Shown one piece after another: positions 937 through 6,445 of a DNA stretch of 64,000 bases. The position numbers and the translations under genes were made by a program. Source of the stretch: Candidatus Eiseniibacteriota bacterium (lineage in GTDB: Bacteria; Eisenbacteria; RBG-16-71-46). The notes below the pieces were generated by a model. It was not told the DNA's origin. It was given only the letters and a program-made list of their open reading frames with translations, and did not search any database. The stretch is from contig JBGPFC010000007.1 in assembly GCA_041483195.1 (NCBI GenBank), positions 32,001 to 96,000 of the forward strand. The letters are read 5' to 3'. Each line of letters begins with the position of its first letter. Position 1 is the first letter of the stretch.

Positions 937-2880
937 GTGATCCAGCTGCAGAAACTCCGTTACTCGATCGGCGATCGGGTGCTCTTCGAGGACCTGGACT
1001 GGGTGCTCGCACCGGGCGACCGCGTGGCGCTGGTCGGGCCGAACGGCGCGGGCAAGACCACGCTCATCCGCGTGATGCTGGGCGAGTACCAGCCGGAATC
1101 GGGCGCGCGCGTGCTCGCGCGCGGCACGCGGCTCGGCTACCTGCCGCAGGAGGCGGCTGAGCGATTCGACGGCACGGTGCTCGACCGCGCGATGGAGGCG
1201 CATCGCCACCTGCTCGGCATGCGCGAAGAGCTCGACGCCCTCCACCAGCGGCTCTCCGGGATCCGCGCCGAGGACGCCGATCTCGAAGCGCTGCTCGAGC
1301 GCGCGGGCGAGCTGCAGCACCACCTCGAGCTCGGCGACGAGCACGCGCTCGAGCCCGAGGCGCGGCGCGTGCTGACCGGTCTCGGATTCTCGAGGCGCGA
1401 TCAGGACCGGCCGCTGGCGGAGTTCTCCGGCGGCTGGCGCATGCGCGCGGCGCTCGCCGCGCTGCTGCTCACCGACCCCACGCTGCTGTTTCTCGACGAG
1501 CCGACCAACCACCTCGATCTGCCCGCGATGGAGTGGCTCGAGGACTACCTCGAGGAATTTCACGGCGGGCTGGTGGTGGTCTCGCACGATCGCGTCTTCC
1601 TGGACCGCGTCGCGACCGAGGTCCGCGAGCTGGACCGCGGCACGCTCAGCGACTATCCCATGAAGTTCACGCAGTACCTGGAGGAGCGCGAGCTGCGCCG
1701 CGAGCGGCTCGAGGCGCAGAACGCGCAGGTCGAGAAGCGCATCGCCGAGCTGTCGCGCTTCGTCGAACGCTTCGGCGCGAAGAACACCAAGGCCGCGCAG
1801 GCCCAGAGCAAGCGCAAGATGATCGCGCGGCTCAAGACCGAGCGCGTGGTCATCCCGCACCGCGCGAAGAGCATCCGGTTTCACTTCCCCGACCCGCCGC
1901 ACGCCGGGCGCACCGTGGTCCGCCTCAAGGACGTGGCGTTCGGATACGGCGAGGCCGACGTGTTCGCGGGCGCGCGCCTCGAGATCGAACGCGGCGACAA
2001 GGTCGCGATCGTCGGCGCGAACGGCGCGGGCAAGACCACGCTGCTGCGCGTGATCGAGGGACAGCTCGAGCCCCGCGCCGGCGAGCGTGAGACCTATCCC
2101 CATACGAAGCTCGCCTACTTCGCGCAGCACGCCGCCGAGACCCTCGACGCCACCCAGACGGTGCTGGGCGCGGTCGAGGACGTGGCGCCCGCGGAGTGGC
2201 GGCCGCGGCTGCGGAGCCTGCTCGGCAACTTCCTGTTCTCGGGCGACGACGTGTTCAAGCTGTGCCGCGTGCTCTCGGGCGGCGAACGCCAGCGGGTCGC
2301 GCTCGCACGCATCCTGATGGCGCCCGCGAATCTCATCCTGCTCGACGAGCCCACCCACCACCTCGACCTGGCGGGCAAGGAAGTGCTCGAGGACGCTCTC
2401 GAGCAGTATCCGGGGGCGATCGTGGTCGTGACCCACGACCGCTCGCTGATGGCCCGGCTCGCGACCCGCATCATCGAGGTCAACGACGGGCGCGTCGTGC
2501 TCTATCCGGGCGGCTACGACGACTACGAATCGGCGCGGCTCGCGCGCGTGGCGGGCGCCGTCCCGCCGCGGGCGGACGCCACGCGCGAGCAGCCGCGGGC
2601 GGCCGTGAAGCCCGCGGCGCCCGCGACGCCCCCCCGGAAGCAGCCGGGCCGCGGGACGGAGCGCGCCGCCCGCGGTGGGCAGCCGAAACGCGACAAGGAG
2701 CTGCTGCGCATCGAGCAGGACATCGAGGCCCGCGAGGCGAAGCTTCGCGCGCTCGAGTCGCAGCTCGCCGATCCCGACATGTACCACGATGGCCCGCGCG
2801 CGAAACAGCTCGTGACCGAATACGAGCGACTGCGCGCCGAGCTGGACTCGCTGTGGGCCCGCATGGCGGAGCTGGGATAG
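937..2880 (+). CDS. ABC-F family ATP-binding protein (Uup/YheS-like)
   Basis: Two ABC domains (GPNGAGKT/FSGGW/LLFLDEPTNHLD and GANGAGKT/LSGGE/LLDEPTHHLD), no TM segments, C-terminal coiled coil. Start set at GTG 937, where homology begins. Confidence 0.92.
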   Translation: MIQLQKLRYSIGDRVLFEDLDWVLAPGDRVALVGPNGAGKTTLIRVMLGEYQPESGARVLARGTRLGYLPQEAAERFDGTVLDRAMEAHRHLLGMREELDALHQRLSGIRAEDADLEALLERAGELQHHLELGDEHALEPEARRVLTGLGFSRRDQDRPLAEFSGGWRMRAALAALLLTDPTLLFLDEPTNHLDLPAMEWLEDYLEEFHGGLVVVSHDRVFLDRVATEVRELDRGTLSDYPMKFTQYLEERELRRERLEAQNAQVEKRIAELSRFVERFGAKNTKAAQAQSKRKMIARLKTERVVIPHRAKSIRFHFPDPPHAGRTVVRLKDVAFGYGEADVFAGARLEIERGDKVAIVGANGAGKTTLLRVIEGQLEPRAGERETYPHTKLAYFAQHAAETLDATQTVLGAVEDVAPAEWRPRLRSLLGNFLFSGDDVFKLCRVLSGGERQRVALARILMAPANLILLDEPTHHLDLAGKEVLEDALEQYPGAIVVVTHDRSLMARLATRIIEVNDGRVVLYPGGYDDYESARLARVAGAVPPRADATREQPRAAVKPAAPATPPRKQPGRGTERAARGGQPKRDKELLRIEQDIEAREAKLRALESQLADPDMYHDGPRAKQLVTEYERLRAELDSLWARMAELG

Positions 2881-2886
2881 CGCCCT
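2879..2886 (+). repeat. Left target-site duplication AGCGCCCT
   Basis: Identical 8-mer immediately outside both TIRs. Confidence 0.9.
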
Positions 2887-2905
2887 GGTAGTGGTCTAGT
2901 TTGAA
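2887..2905 (+). repeat. Left terminal inverted repeat
   Basis: GGTAGTGGTCTAGTTTGAA; 16/16 and 18/19 match to the reverse complement of 5739-5757. Confidence 0.93.
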
Positions 2906-2952
2906 CACGCGGCCCCCTTCCCAAAACGGGCGTGACGTGCCACATTACGTGC

Positions 2953-3189
2953 ATGCCTGCCCGCGCAAGAAAACGCCCTCGCGATCCGAACCGGCTCGCC
3001 TTCCAAGTCGTTCAGGAAGCTACCAAGCAAACCCCAGTGGCCCCGGACACGAGAAATCCGGCCGCCGTGGCCTTGTCGAAACTCGGAGCCTCCAAGGGCG
3101 GGATGGCCCGCGCCGCGAGCCTGTCGGTCGCGCGGAGGCGGGCCATCGCCAAGAAGGCGGCTTGGTCGCGGTGGGGCAAGAAGAAGTAG
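2953..3189 (+). CDS. Small basic IS-associated protein (78 aa; KGG-like motif, putative nucleic-acid binding)
   Basis: MPARARKRPRDPNRLAFQVVQEAT...NPAAVALSKLGASKGGMARAASLS..RRRAIAKKAAWSRW; resembles small proteins I recall next to IS1-type transposases (often labelled histone H1-like or RNA-binding). Confidence 0.8.
   Translation: MPARARKRPRDPNRLAFQVVQEATKQTPVAPDTRNPAAVALSKLGASKGGMARAASLSVARRRAIAKKAAWSRWGKKK
2954..2971. promoter_or_regulatory. Palindromic operator-like motif, copy 1 (TGCCTGCCCGCGCAAGAA)
   Basis: 16/18 identical to the copy at 3656-3673; overlaps the start codon of the 78-aa gene. Confidence 0.55.
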
Positions 3190-3228
3190 GATGTGGCGCG
3201 GTTGAGAACCAATCGAAAGGGGAAAAGC

Positions 3229-3375
3229 ATGGCTAAGAACGAGAAAACCTCTTCGGAGGTTTCCAAGGCAGCCAGTGCCATTTTGCGCGCCCGCAACTCC
3301 ACCAAGAGGGTGAAGAGCGTGGCCGGTTCGGCACTCACCCAAGCCCCGGACAAGGGGAACAAGAAGAAGCCCTGA
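3229..3375 (+). CDS. Small Lys/Ser-rich hypothetical protein (48 aa)
   Basis: RBS AAAGGGGA before ATG 3229; MAKNEKTSSEVSKAASAILRARNSTKRVKSVAGSALTQ...; stop overlaps the next start (TGATG). Confidence 0.7.
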   Translation: MAKNEKTSSEVSKAASAILRARNSTKRVKSVAGSALTQAPDKGNKKKP

Positions 3376-3632
3376 TGCGGCTGGTGCTCGTGGAATGGCT
3401 GGATTCATTCGGTTGCTCGGCAACGTGGGAGCAGCTTGATGGCTGCTCCCCGCATCTTTTGACGTGTCGATCTGTCGGCTGGCTTATCCACGACGGCGAC
3501 GACTGCAAGGTGATTGTCCCGCACGTTTCGCAGCCCAATGAGGGGTGCGGGCAACAAGGCTGCGGAGACATGACGATTCCCACCCGCGCGATAGTCAGGA
3601 TGGCCGACCTGTCCGAGTCCTCGGCGGCCTAG
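3375..3632 (+). CDS. Small beta-rich hypothetical protein (85 aa, Cys-rich)
   Basis: Translationally coupled (TGATG); pattern VLVEWLDS...CRSVGWL...IP..AI like small phage/MGE proteins. Confidence 0.75.
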   Translation: MRLVLVEWLDSFGCSATWEQLDGCSPHLLTCRSVGWLIHDGDDCKVIVPHVSQPNEGCGQQGCGDMTIPTRAIVRMADLSESSAA

Positions 3633-3648
3633 CTCGATTCTTTCTTGC

Positions 3649-3677
3649 TTGACTTTGCCTGCCCGAGCAAGCATCAT
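3649..3677 (+). promoter_or_regulatory. Sigma70-like transposase promoter with palindromic operator copy 2 in the spacer
   Basis: TTGACT(3649-3654)-17 nt-CATCAT(3672-3677)-6 nt-ATG; TGCCTGCCCGAGCAAGCA (3656-3673) is 14/18 self-complementary. Confidence 0.65.
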
Positions 3678-3683
3678 GGCTAC

Positions 3684-4508
3684 ATGAACAGGTTGAGTGT
3701 TGAGGAGCAGGTTCGAATCGTGGCGGTGCTGGTCGAAGGCAACAGCCTTCGGGCAACGGCGCGAATCACCGGCTTTGCCCGCATGACGATTGAGAAGCTC
3801 CTGCGCGATCTCGGCTCGGCGTGCGCCGAGTATCAGGACGTGACGCTTCGCGGCCTGCCTTGCAAGCGCATTCAGTGCGATGAGATTTGGAGCTTCATCT
3901 ACGCGAAGCAGAAGAACCTGCCCGAGAAATTCGCCAAGGAGCCCGGCTACGGCGACACATGGACGTGGACGGCGATTTGTGCGGACACGAAGCTCGTTCC
4001 GTGCTGGCTGGTTGGCCCGAGAAACAAGCGCGCCGCTCGAGAATTCCTCTTCAACCTGTCGGTGCGGATGCGTGGCCGCTTTCAGTTGACTACTGACGGC
4101 CACACCGCCTACCCGGATGCCGTCGAGCGTGTCTTTGGCCATGAGATTGACTACGCGACGCTGACCAAGATTTTCGGGACTGACCCCCAGAACGAAGCCC
4201 GCTACAGCCCGGCGCACCTCACCGGCACGCAAGCCGCAATTATCAGCGGCGATCCGAACCGACGGCACATCTCCACAAGCTATGTCGAGCGGCAAAACCT
4301 GACCATGCGCATGAGCATGCGCCGGTTCACGAGGCTCAGCAATGGATTCAGCCGCAAGGTCGAGATGCACCAGCGTGCGATCGATCTCCACTTCATGCAT
4401 TACAACTTCTGCCGCATCCATCAGACGCTGCGCGTGACCCCGGCCATGGCGGCGGGCGTAACCAACCGGCTTTGGGATGTGGAAGACATCCTCGCCCTGC
4501 TCGACTAG
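3684..4508 (+). CDS. IS1-family DDE transposase (274 aa)
   Basis: N-terminal HTH (EGNSLRATARITG), catalytic CDEIWSF / TTDG / STSYVERQNLTMR and RRFTRLSNGFSRK motifs; single ORF with no frameshift and no zinc ribbon. Confidence 0.92.
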   Translation: MNRLSVEEQVRIVAVLVEGNSLRATARITGFARMTIEKLLRDLGSACAEYQDVTLRGLPCKRIQCDEIWSFIYAKQKNLPEKFAKEPGYGDTWTWTAICADTKLVPCWLVGPRNKRAAREFLFNLSVRMRGRFQLTTDGHTAYPDAVERVFGHEIDYATLTKIFGTDPQNEARYSPAHLTGTQAAIISGDPNRRHISTSYVERQNLTMRMSMRRFTRLSNGFSRKVEMHQRAIDLHFMHYNFCRIHQTLRVTPAMAAGVTNRLWDVEDILALLD

Positions 4509-4517
4509 GAGGAGCAC

Positions 4518-4760
4518 ATGAACAATCGCCAACGCCTTGCGTTTGCTCTCGCCTGCTGGATCGCGTGCGGGCTGATTCTGGCTCCCTGTGACCGGGCGAC
4601 CAGCCACTTTTTCAACCTCCCGGACGGCTACTATCCGAACGACATGGCGATGCTGCGATCCGGCTACGCGCCGATCGCCCGGACGGTGGATCTGGTGATC
4701 GCCGCGCTTCTCGGCGGAGCCGGGCTCACGGTGCTGCTCGGTTGGAAAAAATCGAACTGA
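4518..4760 (+). CDS. Small two-TM membrane protein (IS passenger, 80 aa)
   Basis: Strong RBS AGGAGGAG; two hydrophobic segments. Confidence 0.65.
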   Translation: MNNRQRLAFALACWIACGLILAPCDRATSHFFNLPDGYYPNDMAMLRSGYAPIARTVDLVIAALLGGAGLTVLLGWKKSN

Positions 4761-4769
4761 TCCACTAGC
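4751..4769 (+). repeat. Degenerate internal IS end-like sequence
   Basis: ATCGAACTGATCCACTAGC vs TTCAAACTAGACCACTACC (left TIR reverse complement): 13/19, conserving AACT-N3-CCACTA. Confidence 0.5.
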
Positions 4770-5619
4770 CACCTTTGACTCTTCTTTTCTCAAAGTATTT
4801 GGCCATTGTTTCTCTAGCCCCCCGCTCCCCTCTTTGAGCAGCCATCCGTTCCCGCCTATATAGTCGGTCGAGGTCCTTCACCATTGGTGAGTCCGGGCCG
4901 TCGAGCCCTCGATTTCCGTCGTGGCCGATAGAGAACACGTCGGTGGCCCGCCCGACACCAGGAGCGATCTCGCCGCGCTTCTTCGCGAAGAACACGGACA
5001 CAAGGGCGGCAGAGGCGGCCACTTCTCGCGTGTGGCCTTGGAGCATTAGGTACGAGTTCGCGTGCCAGCCGCCCGTTCCGATTGCCGCGAACCCAACCGA
5101 GTCCTCGCAACTGGGTGCGCCGCGCTTACCGATGAAGATGTGGGCACCAGTCGCGTCTACGCCGGCAATGATGCACCCGACTTCCAAGTCGTAGTCCTTG
5201 GCCGACTCGGCTAGACCACCAATCAGCATCTCGACAAGTCCAGCGCTCAAGTTCTGCTGCTGCTGGTTAAAACTCTTCCACGTGAGCCCGTACGGGCCGA
5301 GAATGTCTGCCTCGGCCTTTGCCCTGTAGGCTGCGGTGGCGAGTCGCCCATAGGATTCAGCTACCCACCCCACTTCTGGATCGCTTGCTTCGTCGCGAGT
5401 TGCGATCAGGCTCCGAAGCTGGCTGAAGATGCCGGACTGGATCGACACGTTCCCCGCAACCATTGCGACCAGCGATTGACCGAGCCATTCGAGTTTGGAG
5501 CGTCGAGGCTCGAACTCTATGACATCCGAGGTCAACATCTGATCGGAGGCACCTAGGACCCAGTCTTGGTATTTGGTTTGGCTGCCAAACCTGCACAGCG
5601 CTGCGACGCAGACCGTCAC
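4765..5619 (-). CDS. Proteasome beta-subunit-like Ntn hydrolase (IS passenger, 284 aa)
   Basis: RBS AAGGAAGG then GTG-ACG gives M-T-V-C-V-A-A (N-terminal Thr); ASDQMLT, SKL, IIAGVD..GAHIF, FAAIGTGG..A motifs of the proteasome/HslV fold. Confidence 0.75.
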   Translation of the reverse strand: MTVCVAALCRFGSQTKYQDWVLGASDQMLTSDVIEFEPRRSKLEWLGQSLVAMVAGNVSIQSGIFSQLRSLIATRDEASDPEVGWVAESYGRLATAAYRAKAEADILGPYGLTWKSFNQQQQNLSAGLVEMLIGGLAESAKDYDLEVGCIIAGVDATGAHIFIGKRGAPSCEDSVGFAAIGTGGWHANSYLMLQGHTREVAASAALVSVFFAKKRGEIAPGVGRATDVFSIGHDGNRGLDGPDSPMVKDLDRLYRRERMAAQRGERGARETMAKYFEKRRVKGG

Positions 5620-5709
5620 AACCGGACCCTTCCTTCGTGGCGGCGACAGCGTCCTGCGCGGTTTGCGCGACGGCCTCAGCCGCGGAAAGGGGCGAGCATA
5701 GTCCGTGCC

Positions 5710-5727
5710 TACGTGCCCGCGCAAGCA
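5710..5727. promoter_or_regulatory. Palindromic operator-like motif, copy 3 (TACGTGCCCGCGCAAGCA)
   Basis: 15/18 identical to copy 2; just inside the right TIR and upstream of the Ntn gene. Confidence 0.55.
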
Positions 5728-5738
5728 ATCGGGCTGAT

Positions 5739-5757
5739 TTGAAACTAGACCACTACC
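5739..5757 (-). repeat. Right terminal inverted repeat
   Basis: TTGAAACTAGACCACTACC. Confidence 0.93.
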
Positions 5758-5765
5758 AGCGCCCT
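5758..5765 (+). repeat. Right target-site duplication AGCGCCCT
   Basis: Matches 2879-2886. Confidence 0.9.
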
Positions 5766-5772
5766 CCCCGGA

Positions 5773-5801
5773 TTGACGCGCGTCTCCCGCCCCGCTAACG
5801 T
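5773..5801 (+). promoter_or_regulatory. Sigma70-like promoter of the BMC gene (leaderless-type)
   Basis: TTGACG-17-TAACGT-8 nt-ATG(5810), no SD. Confidence 0.6.
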
Positions 5802-5809
5802 GCCGCGGC

Positions 5810-6445
5810 ATGGCCGACGTCACGCTGCGCAGCTACATCTTCCTCGACAGCCTCCAGCCGCAGCTCGCGGCGTTCATCGGCACCACCGCCCGCGGGTTCC
5901 TGCCGGTGGCGGGTGACGCATCGATGCTGATCGAGACCGCGCCGGGCCTGATCATCAATCGGATCACCGACGTCGCGCTCAAGGCGACGCAGTGCACGCC
6001 CGCGATCATGGTGGTCGAGCGCGCGTTCGGGTTGCTCGAGATCCACCATCGCGACAAGGGGCAGGTGCAGCTCGGCGGGCAGGCGGTGCTCCAGTACCTC
6101 GGCATCGACGAGCACGACCGGATGAAGCCACGCGTGGTCTCGGACCAGGTGATCCGAGCGGTCGAGCCCTATCATGCGCAGGTCATCAACAAGACGCGAT
6201 ACGGCGACATGCTGATCGCCGGCGAGAGTCTGCTCATTCTCGAGACCGAGCCGGCGGGATACATCGCGTTCGGCGCGAACGAAGCGCTCAAGGCGGCGCG
6301 CGTGAAGCTGATCGACGCTTCGTTGTTCGGCGCCTACGGGCGGCTCTACCTCTCCGGCCCCGAGGCCCAGATCGACGCGGCACGCGACGCGGCGCTGCGC
6401 GGGCTCGGCACGGTCACGGGCCGGGAAGCGAAGGGCAGCGTCTAG
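5810..6445 (+). CDS. Bacterial microcompartment shell protein, tandem permuted BMC-T (CcmP/CsoS1D-like)
   Basis: [43 protein letters not shown]...[16 protein letters not shown] signatures. Confidence 0.92.

Follow-up and report, generated by a model that had tools for sequence, protein, structure and literature searches.

What is the block of small genes that lies between an ABC-F gene and a BMC-domain gene in a 64,000-nucleotide stretch of Candidatus Eiseniibacteriota DNA (contig JBGPFC010000007.1, positions 32,001 to 96,000; hereafter "the window"), and how did it come to lie there? The block is an intact transposon of the IS1 family of insertion sequences (IS) that carries cargo genes. It occupies positions 2887 to 5757 of the window (2871 bp), and its perfect inverted ends (16/16), exact 8-bp target duplication, and intact DDE transposase can be read directly from the DNA, as a sequence-only reading of the window had proposed. 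We consider it probable that the element belongs to a distant branch of the IS1 family with a transposase encoded by a single open reading frame (ORF), and that this branch consists of autonomous transporter ISs with a fixed core, a shared operator, a promoter-linked target, and variable cargo.

The two ends form the longest inverted repeat of the region in a repeat search, and their match runs on imperfectly for ∼3 bases past the 16 bp. Each copy of the duplication directly abuts its end. The left copy overlaps the last 2 bases of the ABC-F stop codon (TAG at 2878-2880), and the BMC gene (5810-6445, ATG at 5810) lies downstream of the right end and of its own promoter, so the insertion spared both genes, lying after the ABC-F stop and ahead of the BMC promoter, as first read. 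Between the ends are the transposase gene and five further ORFs. The GC content is ∼0.60 within the element and ∼0.71 outside it, and the GC content at third codon positions (GC3) is 0.69 to 0.79 in the six internal ORFs versus 0.92 in both flanking host genes, which indicates that the DNA of the element is foreign and little ameliorated. Since greedy ORF picking took spurious antisense frames in this high-GC element, GC3-supported frames were used instead. The ends, the core genes, and the regulatory sites are as follows.

2879-2886, no strand: left copy of the target-site duplication, AGCGCCCT
2887-2902, plus strand: left terminal inverted repeat (IRL), GGTAGTGGTCTAGTTT
2953-3189, plus strand: ORF1, 78 amino acids (aa), isoelectric point 12, conserved core gene that starts 66 bases inside IRL
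2954-2971, no strand: operator-like palindrome, copy 1, TGCCTGCCCGCGCAAGAA, overlapping the ORF1 start codon
3649-3677, plus strand: transposase promoter, TTGACT, 17 bp, CATCAT, the sole promoter-like site found in the region
3656-3673, within the spacer of the transposase promoter: operator-like palindrome, copy 2, TGCCTGCCCGAGCAAGCA
3684-4508, plus strand: single-ORF IS1-family DDE transposase, 274 aa, PF03400, with an N-terminal helix-turn-helix (HTH; HTH_38)
5710-5727, no strand: operator-like palindrome, copy 3, whose minus strand reads TGCTTGCGCGGGCACGTA, 91-108 bases upstream of the protease start
5742-5757, minus strand: right terminal inverted repeat (IRR), exact reverse complement of IRL
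5758-5765, no strand: right copy of the target-site duplication, AGCGCCCT
5773-5801, plus strand: host promoter of the BMC-domain gene, TTGACG (5773-5778), 17-bp spacer, TAACGT (5796-5801)

The sequence-only reading had suggested looking for an empty site in related genomes. All 41 related genomes contain the 3′ end of the ABC-F gene, a tally that includes the assembly of the window itself (G000) and the unpublished G026, which supports none of the conclusions here. Twelve loci were fetched, of which L003 is that of the window; five of the eleven related loci also held the BMC gene, and all five lacked the element. In four of them (G003, G002, G015, and G006) the site is bare: a TTGAC box, GCTAACGT, and the BMC start come within 45 to 150 bp of the ABC-F stop. 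At the insertion site, G015 reads GGCGCCCTCCC, a sequence similar to one copy of the octamer that is duplicated in the window. In the fifth (G018), ∼0.6 kb of unrelated sequence separates the two genes. Relatives that kept the cargo here without the transposase had been named as evidence against a transposon; the relatives lack the whole unit. The TTGAC...GCTAACGT promoter of the BMC gene, directly after the ABC-F gene, is kept across several genera of the family (L004, L007, L011, and L012).

Contigs from independent sediment runs bridge the junctions of the element with 0 differences, both junctions in X2 and X5 and the right one in X12; X13 contigs bridge neither. In some runs, parts of the protease gene were without contig cover, to which we attach no weight. 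Contig depth rises to 57 at window positions 3797-3923 and 4178-4431, the most conserved segments of the transposase, versus ∼8 elsewhere in the element, and many loose contig ends at those segments run into other sequence. The raised depth and the loose ends suggest that many related transposases co-occur in the sediment samples.

To which family does the element belong? The transposase matched Pfam PF03400 (DDE_Tnp_IS1) with 33.2 bits (cut-off, 24.1) over residues 209-249 only, and D66, D138, and E202 (in ERQN..R) were invariant in an alignment of 45 relatives. Those relatives are numerous: 592 of 601 pattern matches in species-representative genome contigs encode one, viral contigs contain 248, and in a collection of 5.8 billion proteins all 8000 candidates scored E ≤ 1e-20, so at least 8000 exist, the named ones being called "IS1 family transposase" by JGI and NCBI. 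Their host phyla include Acidobacteriota, Verrucomicrobiota, Nitrospirota, Chloroflexota, and Planctomycetota.

We surveyed ends and cargo in the 80 best transposase loci from genomes and in 80 loci from viral contigs. A GGTAGTG-type end pair surrounds the transposase in 58 of the 80 genome loci, in elements of 1817 to 5435 bp, with an exact 8-bp duplication in 51 of the 58 and an exact 9-bp duplication in none. Among the viral loci, 63 of 80 have end pairs and 42 have exact duplications. The consensus of the ends in relatives is GGTAGTGnnnnAGTTT. The elements share a fixed core with variable slots, which runs from IRL through ORF1, a cargo slot, the transposase with its own promoter, and a second cargo slot to IRR; slot contents differ among relatives, while ORF1 and the transposase persist. 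The organization had initially looked exceptional, a view that does not survive the comparison with thousands of relatives of 1.8 to 5.4 kb built in the same way.

IS1 family ends begin with GGnnnTG, and target duplications in the family are 8 to 9 bp long. The element thus belongs to the family by transposase homology, by its ends (GGTAGTG start), and by its 8-bp duplication. It does not have the classical IS1 organization, an insA/insB′ −1 frameshift in less than 1.2 kb, but a single 274-aa ORF with its own promoter in 2871 bp, and every element that we examined is longer than classical IS1. This rules out the classical subgroup and not the IS1 family; ISfinder recognizes single-ORF IS1 subgroups too.

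Some individual loci deserve mention. L177, which has the closest transposase in the tree (67% identity), and L218 yielded no end pairs by the criteria used. Still closer transposases, at 73 to 80% identity, are P0054-P0060, two of which agree with protease homologues in the length of their longest contig (P0054 with P0003, P0055 with P0025). L088 carries a Mutator-family (IS256-type) transposase gene (L088:6514-7824) within a 4.6-kb element of the lineage; it looks like a transposon nested in a transposon, and the L088 element is without an exact 8-bp duplication. Copies also occur in cultured bacteria, on plasmid p_1 of Mesorhizobium loti 582 (L175) and on a plasmid of Acidiphilium multivorum JZ-6 (L176), and neither plasmid record shows a mobile-element feature.

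The second constituent of the core is ORF1 (GC3, 0.78), a protein with the motif NPAAVALGRLGGxKGGxARA..LS..R..IA.KAA..RW. ORF clustering placed an ∼80-aa protein of the ORF1 family at the same left-end position in 42 of the 58 elements. ORF1 had been counted as one of five passengers; given this recurrence it is a core gene of the lineage, and the passengers number four. Matches by tblastn were found in 57 of the 80 genome loci, 55 of the 80 viral loci, and 14 of 80 metagenome loci that had been selected by the protease described below. A profile search retrieved 7960 of 8000 candidates at E ≤ 1e-5, hence at least 7960 relatives, all unnamed and without Pfam domains. An AlphaFold2 model of ORF1 consists of four helices, with a predicted local distance difference test (pLDDT) score of 80.7. 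Searches of PHROG gave a weak match to phrog_2384 (E = 3e-4), in which the C-terminal motif of ORF1 aligns with the N terminus of phrog_2384, and the motif may be a module that ORF1 shares with phage regulators. P63C-domain cargo proteins of 324 to 387 aa (L019, L076, L085, and L089) clustered with the ORF1 family by blastp, and the ORF1 homologue of one of the cultured bacteria (L175) is annotated "histone H1." Prediction of a complex between ORF1 and the transposase scored 0.00 in both runs, which is no evidence either way. ORF1 is likely a DNA-binding regulator or an accessory factor.

Core and cargo appear to be linked by the 18-bp palindrome, which a repeat search found as direct repeats at 2954, 3656, and 5710 and whose consensus among relatives is TGCTTGAnCGnTCAAGCA. 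With up to 4 mismatches allowed, we counted 95 sites in 59 elements (0.51 per kb) versus 9 in 387 kb of flanking DNA (0.023 per kb). The palindrome lies upstream of the transposase in 40 of the 59 elements, inside the spacer of a TTGACA...CATAAT promoter; it is present in the left 150 bp of 35 of them and near the right end of 5. Within 260 bases upstream of the protease gene it occurred in 10 of 21 transposon-borne protease loci versus 1 of 59 others, and in some of these transposon-borne loci the upstream palindrome is the ORF1 or transposase site itself. In L169, a near-identical copy precedes the protease gene by 124 bases. A single DNA-binding protein (ORF1, or the transposase through its HTH) could repress ORF1, the transposase, and the protease through the three palindromes, and the shared palindrome would wire the cargo into the element's own control circuit.

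What do the slots hold? In this element, the cargo consists of four genes.

3229-3375, plus strand: ORF2, 48 aa, small and basic, member of the phage protein family phrog_5079 (E = 1.5e-10), GC3 0.78
3375-3632, plus strand: ORF3, 85 aa, acidic, 7 Cys, phrog_25889 at E = 7e-4 (weak), GC3 0.76
4518-4760, plus strand: ORF5, 80 aa, two hydrophobic segments (∼6-25 and ∼55-77), starting 9 bases after the transposase stop, GC3 0.78
4765-5619, minus strand: N-terminal nucleophile (Ntn) hydrolase with a proteasome beta fold, 284 aa, GTG start at 5619 preceded by AAGGAAGG

The cargo of relatives was characterized by comparing 135 ORFs of at least 100 aa with Pfam. Toxin-antitoxin-type cargo comprised HigB/Gp49 with an HTH protein, HicB, MazF, SocA-Panacea, AAA_21, and RelA_SpoT, and in the A. 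multivorum JZ-6 plasmid copy (L176) a RES toxin and an Xre-type antitoxin adjoin the transposase. Restriction-modification cargo included a NotI-type endonuclease with a D12 methylase as well as N6_N4 methylases. Other defense-like proteins were a STAND NTPase, NYN, and a dCTP-deaminase-like protein; proteases and regulators were represented by an XRE HTH fused to an M78 (ImmA/IrrE-type) peptidase, ClpP, and an SDH-type ClpP-like protein; and P63C-domain proteins and Rap1a formed further families. In L037 (L037:2128-3858), the restriction-modification pair of a 4.0-kb element of the lineage is complete, with a NotI-type endonuclease (E = 3.6e-54) beside the D12 adenine methylase.

The largest cargo gene of the window's element encodes a putative protease. 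A start at 5823 (ORF 4765-5823) was listed for it and was rejected, since that minus-strand frame runs out of the element. From the GTG at 5619, the protein begins M-T-V-C and is predicted to expose an N-terminal Thr after removal of Met, with no propeptide. At E ≤ 0.001, 51 homologues besides the protein itself were found among 3825 candidates, and 13 of the 51 have a precomputed PF00227 match. Across 33 aligned sequences, K42 never varies, and M1, T2, C4, D26, and R27 hardly do. A profile of the family matched proteasome beta subunits in the PDB (E = 8e-9), with Thr2 aligned to Thr1 and K42 to Lys33. The protein itself had no Pfam match at E ≤ 0.1, PF00227 included, and reached 17 bits with TIGR03634 against a cut-off of 224. 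The AlphaFold2 model (pLDDT, 95.1; predicted template modeling [TM] score, 0.89) has the four-layer alpha-beta-beta-alpha fold of proteasome subunits, with additional helices following H2 and a C-terminal helix of 39 residues. Foldseek returned at least 500 PDB matches to the model at E ≤ 0.001, of which the best were 20S beta subunits (probability 1.00, TM up to 0.80). Profile, model, and Foldseek search together uphold the initial identification of a proteasome-like Ntn protease in the cargo.

Metagenomes contain 401 relatives of the protease, and three viral loci contain relatives as well. Among the best 80 metagenome protease loci, 19 also have the lineage transposase and 14 have ORF1, many contigs being too short to tell. 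The slot and orientation of the gene vary: L098 has the order ORF1, protease, transposase; in L096 the protease is convergent with ORF1; and in the window it lies downstream of the transposase. In L045, a distant PF00227 protein occupies the slot that the protease has in the window and is encoded in the same direction. In a tree of 161 transposases, the 14 protease-bearing rows were scattered and required 12 changes, at least 6 of them forced by well-supported branches; when labels were shuffled, as few changes sufficed in 37 of 500 cases. The metagenome rows of the tree had been chosen by the protease, so the tree speaks to repeated exchange and not to its frequency. On this tree, the protease family is shown to recur as cargo that was gained or lost at least six times.

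What might the protease do? Because the same slots hold toxin-antitoxin, restriction-modification, and protease modules in relatives, we propose that it could serve the element as an effector of maintenance (addiction) or of anti-phage defense, a role that we regard as a serious possibility short of probable. Alternatively, the protease and the other cargo might serve transposition itself, for example, if the protease controlled the level or timing of transposition by degrading ORF1, the transposase, or a nucleoid protein of the host. Such a function would fit the recurrence of proteases of four unrelated kinds as cargo (proteasome-like, ClpP, SDH-type ClpP-like, and M78-XRE), the palindrome that the protease gene shares upstream with ORF1 and the transposase, and the position of the protease between ORF1 and the transposase, on the same strand, in L098 and L099. 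However, most elements of the lineage are without any protease, and none is therefore needed for movement. Furthermore, 61 of the 80 best protease loci have no lineage transposase in the fetched DNA, many of the contigs being short, and the other named cargo, toxin-antitoxin and restriction-modification, has no role in transposition. We thus consider a service to transposition unlikely.

The three small ORFs of the cargo raise a different question, namely, whether they are genes at all. ORF5, which is predicted from hydropathy to be a two-helix small membrane protein, has no convincing family match in Pfam, NCBIfam, PHROG, or PADLOC, the only row being phrog_22051 at E = 0.3. For ORF3, feature matches at 0.93 to viral hypothetical-protein clusters form a weak link, and tblastn in the phage collection gave no match. 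High-GC DNA yields long spurious ORFs, and with so little similarity for ORF3 and ORF5, none of it in the phage collection for the former and no homologue in the fetched loci for the latter, the protease could be the only real cargo. Against this stands their composition: ORF2, ORF3, and ORF5 combine a GC3 of 0.76 to 0.78 with lower GC1 and GC2 (the corresponding values for first and second codon positions), as in the transposase, and most overlapping alternative frames differ. ORF2 moreover matches its phage family at the E value given above and, by tblastn, five phage records of four distinct phages at 48 to 58% identity, and it has a homologue in one related element (L093). The ORFs also tile the strand, with junctions of 1 base, where the ORF3 start overlaps the ORF2 stop, and of 9 bases; the former suggests that ORF2 and ORF3 are translationally coupled. 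We therefore judge it improbable that the three are not genes and retain four cargo genes. The first reading had suggested a PADLOC search for a defense module; with PADLOC-DB 2.0.0, it returned no match at E ≤ 1 for any of the six proteins of the element.

Why does the element lie where it does? IRR ends at 5757 and the TTGACG of the BMC promoter starts at 5773, so that the −35 box begins exactly 15 bp beyond the element end. We examined this spacing in 89 non-redundant insertions with duplications (50 genome and 39 viral), leaving out the copy in the window. On the IRR side of the 50 genome insertions, TTGAC occurred at offset 15 in 10 and at offset 16 in 2, and at none of the rest of 56 offsets; on the IRL side, it occurred at offset 15 in 3 and at offset 16 in 1. 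The 39 viral insertions had TTGAC at offset 15 in 3 cases per side, a weaker replication of the genome result. Of the pooled 89, 24 had TTG at offset 15 from IRR and 15 had it at that offset from IRL (39/89), compared to a mean of 1.55 and a maximum of 7 at other offsets, and TTGAC stood there in 13 (IRR) and 6 (IRL) versus a background of 0.10. After TTG at offset 15, the next bases favored A and then C, and a TAnnnT-like signal appeared at offsets 38 to 43, where the −10 box would lie. The duplicated octamer itself showed no consensus across the 89 insertions. These counts show statistically that the lineage prefers insertion 15 bp upstream of TTGAC sequences resembling −35 boxes. In L048, TTGAC is found at offset 16 on both sides of the element, which sits between two divergent promoter-like sites.

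The preference could in principle reflect survival instead of targeting, if insertions landed anywhere and those just outside promoters and genes persisted. The site in the window, where neither neighbor gene is harmed, would agree with survival, as would the 50 of the 89 insertions that have no TTG at offset 15, a proportion which makes the rule a preference only. However, selection for harmless sites would scatter insertions over intergenic positions, and what we observed is TTGAC 19 times at offset 15, 4 times at offset 16, and at most once elsewhere, on both sides and in two independent collections. Since the peak is exact and falls at a single offset on either side, we favor recognition and consider survival alone quite improbable, slightly more so than the preceding alternatives. 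An origin of the ends by chance or as a composite was rejected because 51 genome loci and 42 viral loci show such ends together with 8-bp duplications.

Several observations weigh against parts of the explanation that we favor. For the classification, the best NCBIfam match of the transposase, NF033558, reached 55.5 bits and is below its cut-off of 100, and tblastn against plasmids returned 20 records, none named enterobacterial IS1; these two results are the reason for placing the transposase on a distant branch of IS1. For mobility, the element is single-copy in its own assembly according to a DNA search and a transposase protein search (93 contigs, 96.8% complete), and the contigs of the four sediment runs (X2, X5, X12, and X13) contain no joint that skips the element, with the qualification that contigs can hide rare variants; the first reading's view that the element is probably active gains no support from these results. 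For ORF1, there was no Pfam, NCBIfam, or PADLOC match, and Foldseek of the model against the PDB gave nothing at E ≤ 10. For the target, beside the insertions without TTG, a strict rule found a good −10 box in 7 of 17 TTGAC cases, and survival of harmless insertions could add to the preference for offset 15. For the protease, D26 aligns one position after Asp17 (GASDR versus GADTR), neither PADLOC nor PHROG gave a match, and no conserved partner was seen outside the element, the largest cluster of non-element neighbors occurring in 7 of 80 loci. For the cargo in general, none of the fetched loci held a homologue of ORF3 or ORF5, the single homologue of ORF2 was that in L093, and many cargo ORFs of relatives match no family, so that "defense-like" covers the named part only.

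Taking these points into account, the account of the locus that we still favor, a cargo-bearing branch of IS1, can be put as a sequence of proposed steps. The DDE transposase, through D66, D138, and E202, would act on the 16-bp inverted ends and leave the 8-bp target duplication. The −35 box itself, or RNA polymerase bound there, would be read as the target signal, and insertion 15 bp upstream of the −35 box of the BMC gene would have left both neighboring genes intact. A bolder version is conceivable, to which we give only tentative credence: the lineage might be a promoter-seeking gene shuttle, in which the transposase or ORF1 reads the −35 box or bound sigma and integrates at a fixed 15 bp (about position −50), the cargo is wired to the element's own operator, and the protease is a new single-gene addiction or anti-phage effector. 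If so, by seeking promoters the element would find a harmless place to insert in nearly every bacterium, from Acidobacteriota to Chloroflexota, and in phages as well. Recognition of promoters by a transposase to the exact base pair would, if confirmed, represent a new mode of target choice and a possible tool. The copies on plasmids of cultured bacteria make experiments feasible.

How does the element compare with known systems? With the canonical IS1 of E. coli (InsA/InsAB′) it shares a DDE transposase matching DDE_Tnp_IS1, GGnnnTG ends, and a small protein gene at the left end; in IS1, InsA is a small left-end protein that represses the element. Canonical IS1 measures ∼768 bp compared to 2871 bp here, and the frameshift fusion is replaced by a transposase that is encoded in one ORF and has an HTH and a promoter of its own. 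No similarity of ORF1 to the zinc-finger/HTH protein InsA could be detected, and the element has two cargo slots, a palindrome away from the ends, and a promoter-proximal choice of target. From the textbook picture of IS1 this branch departs by retaining a second conserved gene and, apparently, by placing core and cargo under one operator.

One IS1 subgroup in ISfinder, ISMhu11, has sizes of up to ∼4.6 kb and would match the 1.8 to 5.4 kb of the elements here; a full-text literature search for ISMhu11 found nothing. Literature searches, which did not extend to ISfinder itself, yielded no description of a conserved ORF1, a shared operator, a −35-linked target, or cargo rich in toxin-antitoxin and defense genes. 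It is these features of the lineage, more than the single copy in the window, that make the element interesting.

A transporter IS (tIS), as defined in the literature, combines a single transposase and its pair of ends with passenger genes enclosed by them (PMC9330008, PMC7986276). The element fits this description, with ORF2, ORF3, ORF5, and the protease lying between its ends. Tn3-family transposons are described in a review (PMC9330008) as having toxin-antitoxin passengers built into the transposition module under res-site promoters, which resembles the putative addiction-type cargo that here appears to lie under the element's own regulatory site. In contrast to Tn3-family transposons, the element has an unrelated transposase and no resolvase or res site, is far smaller, and carries a protease rather than a recognized toxin-antitoxin pair. 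The lineage as a whole carries modules of the kind found in defense islands.

For the protease, the closest comparison is with the uncharacterized proteasome homologues of prokaryotes, together with Anbu, BPH, and HslV. The main text of Fuchs, Alva and Lupas 2021 (PMC8665760) reports 22 new families of proteasome homologues, some with insertions and coiled-coil helices, and describes a helical insertion after H2 or a long C-terminal helix for PHI, PMI-3/4, WPH, and Anbu. As far as that text goes, the protease of the element resembles such proteins in its beta fold, its predicted N-terminal Thr without a propeptide, its Lys aligned to Lys33, its post-H2 helices, and its long C-terminal helix, and in being encoded by a stand-alone gene without an unfoldase partner. 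No word starting with "transpos" occurs in the main text of PMC8665760, supplements excluded, and a transposon context is accordingly absent from that main text. With the protease described here, small transposons become a recurring genomic setting for one branch of the orphan proteasome homologues of bacteria.

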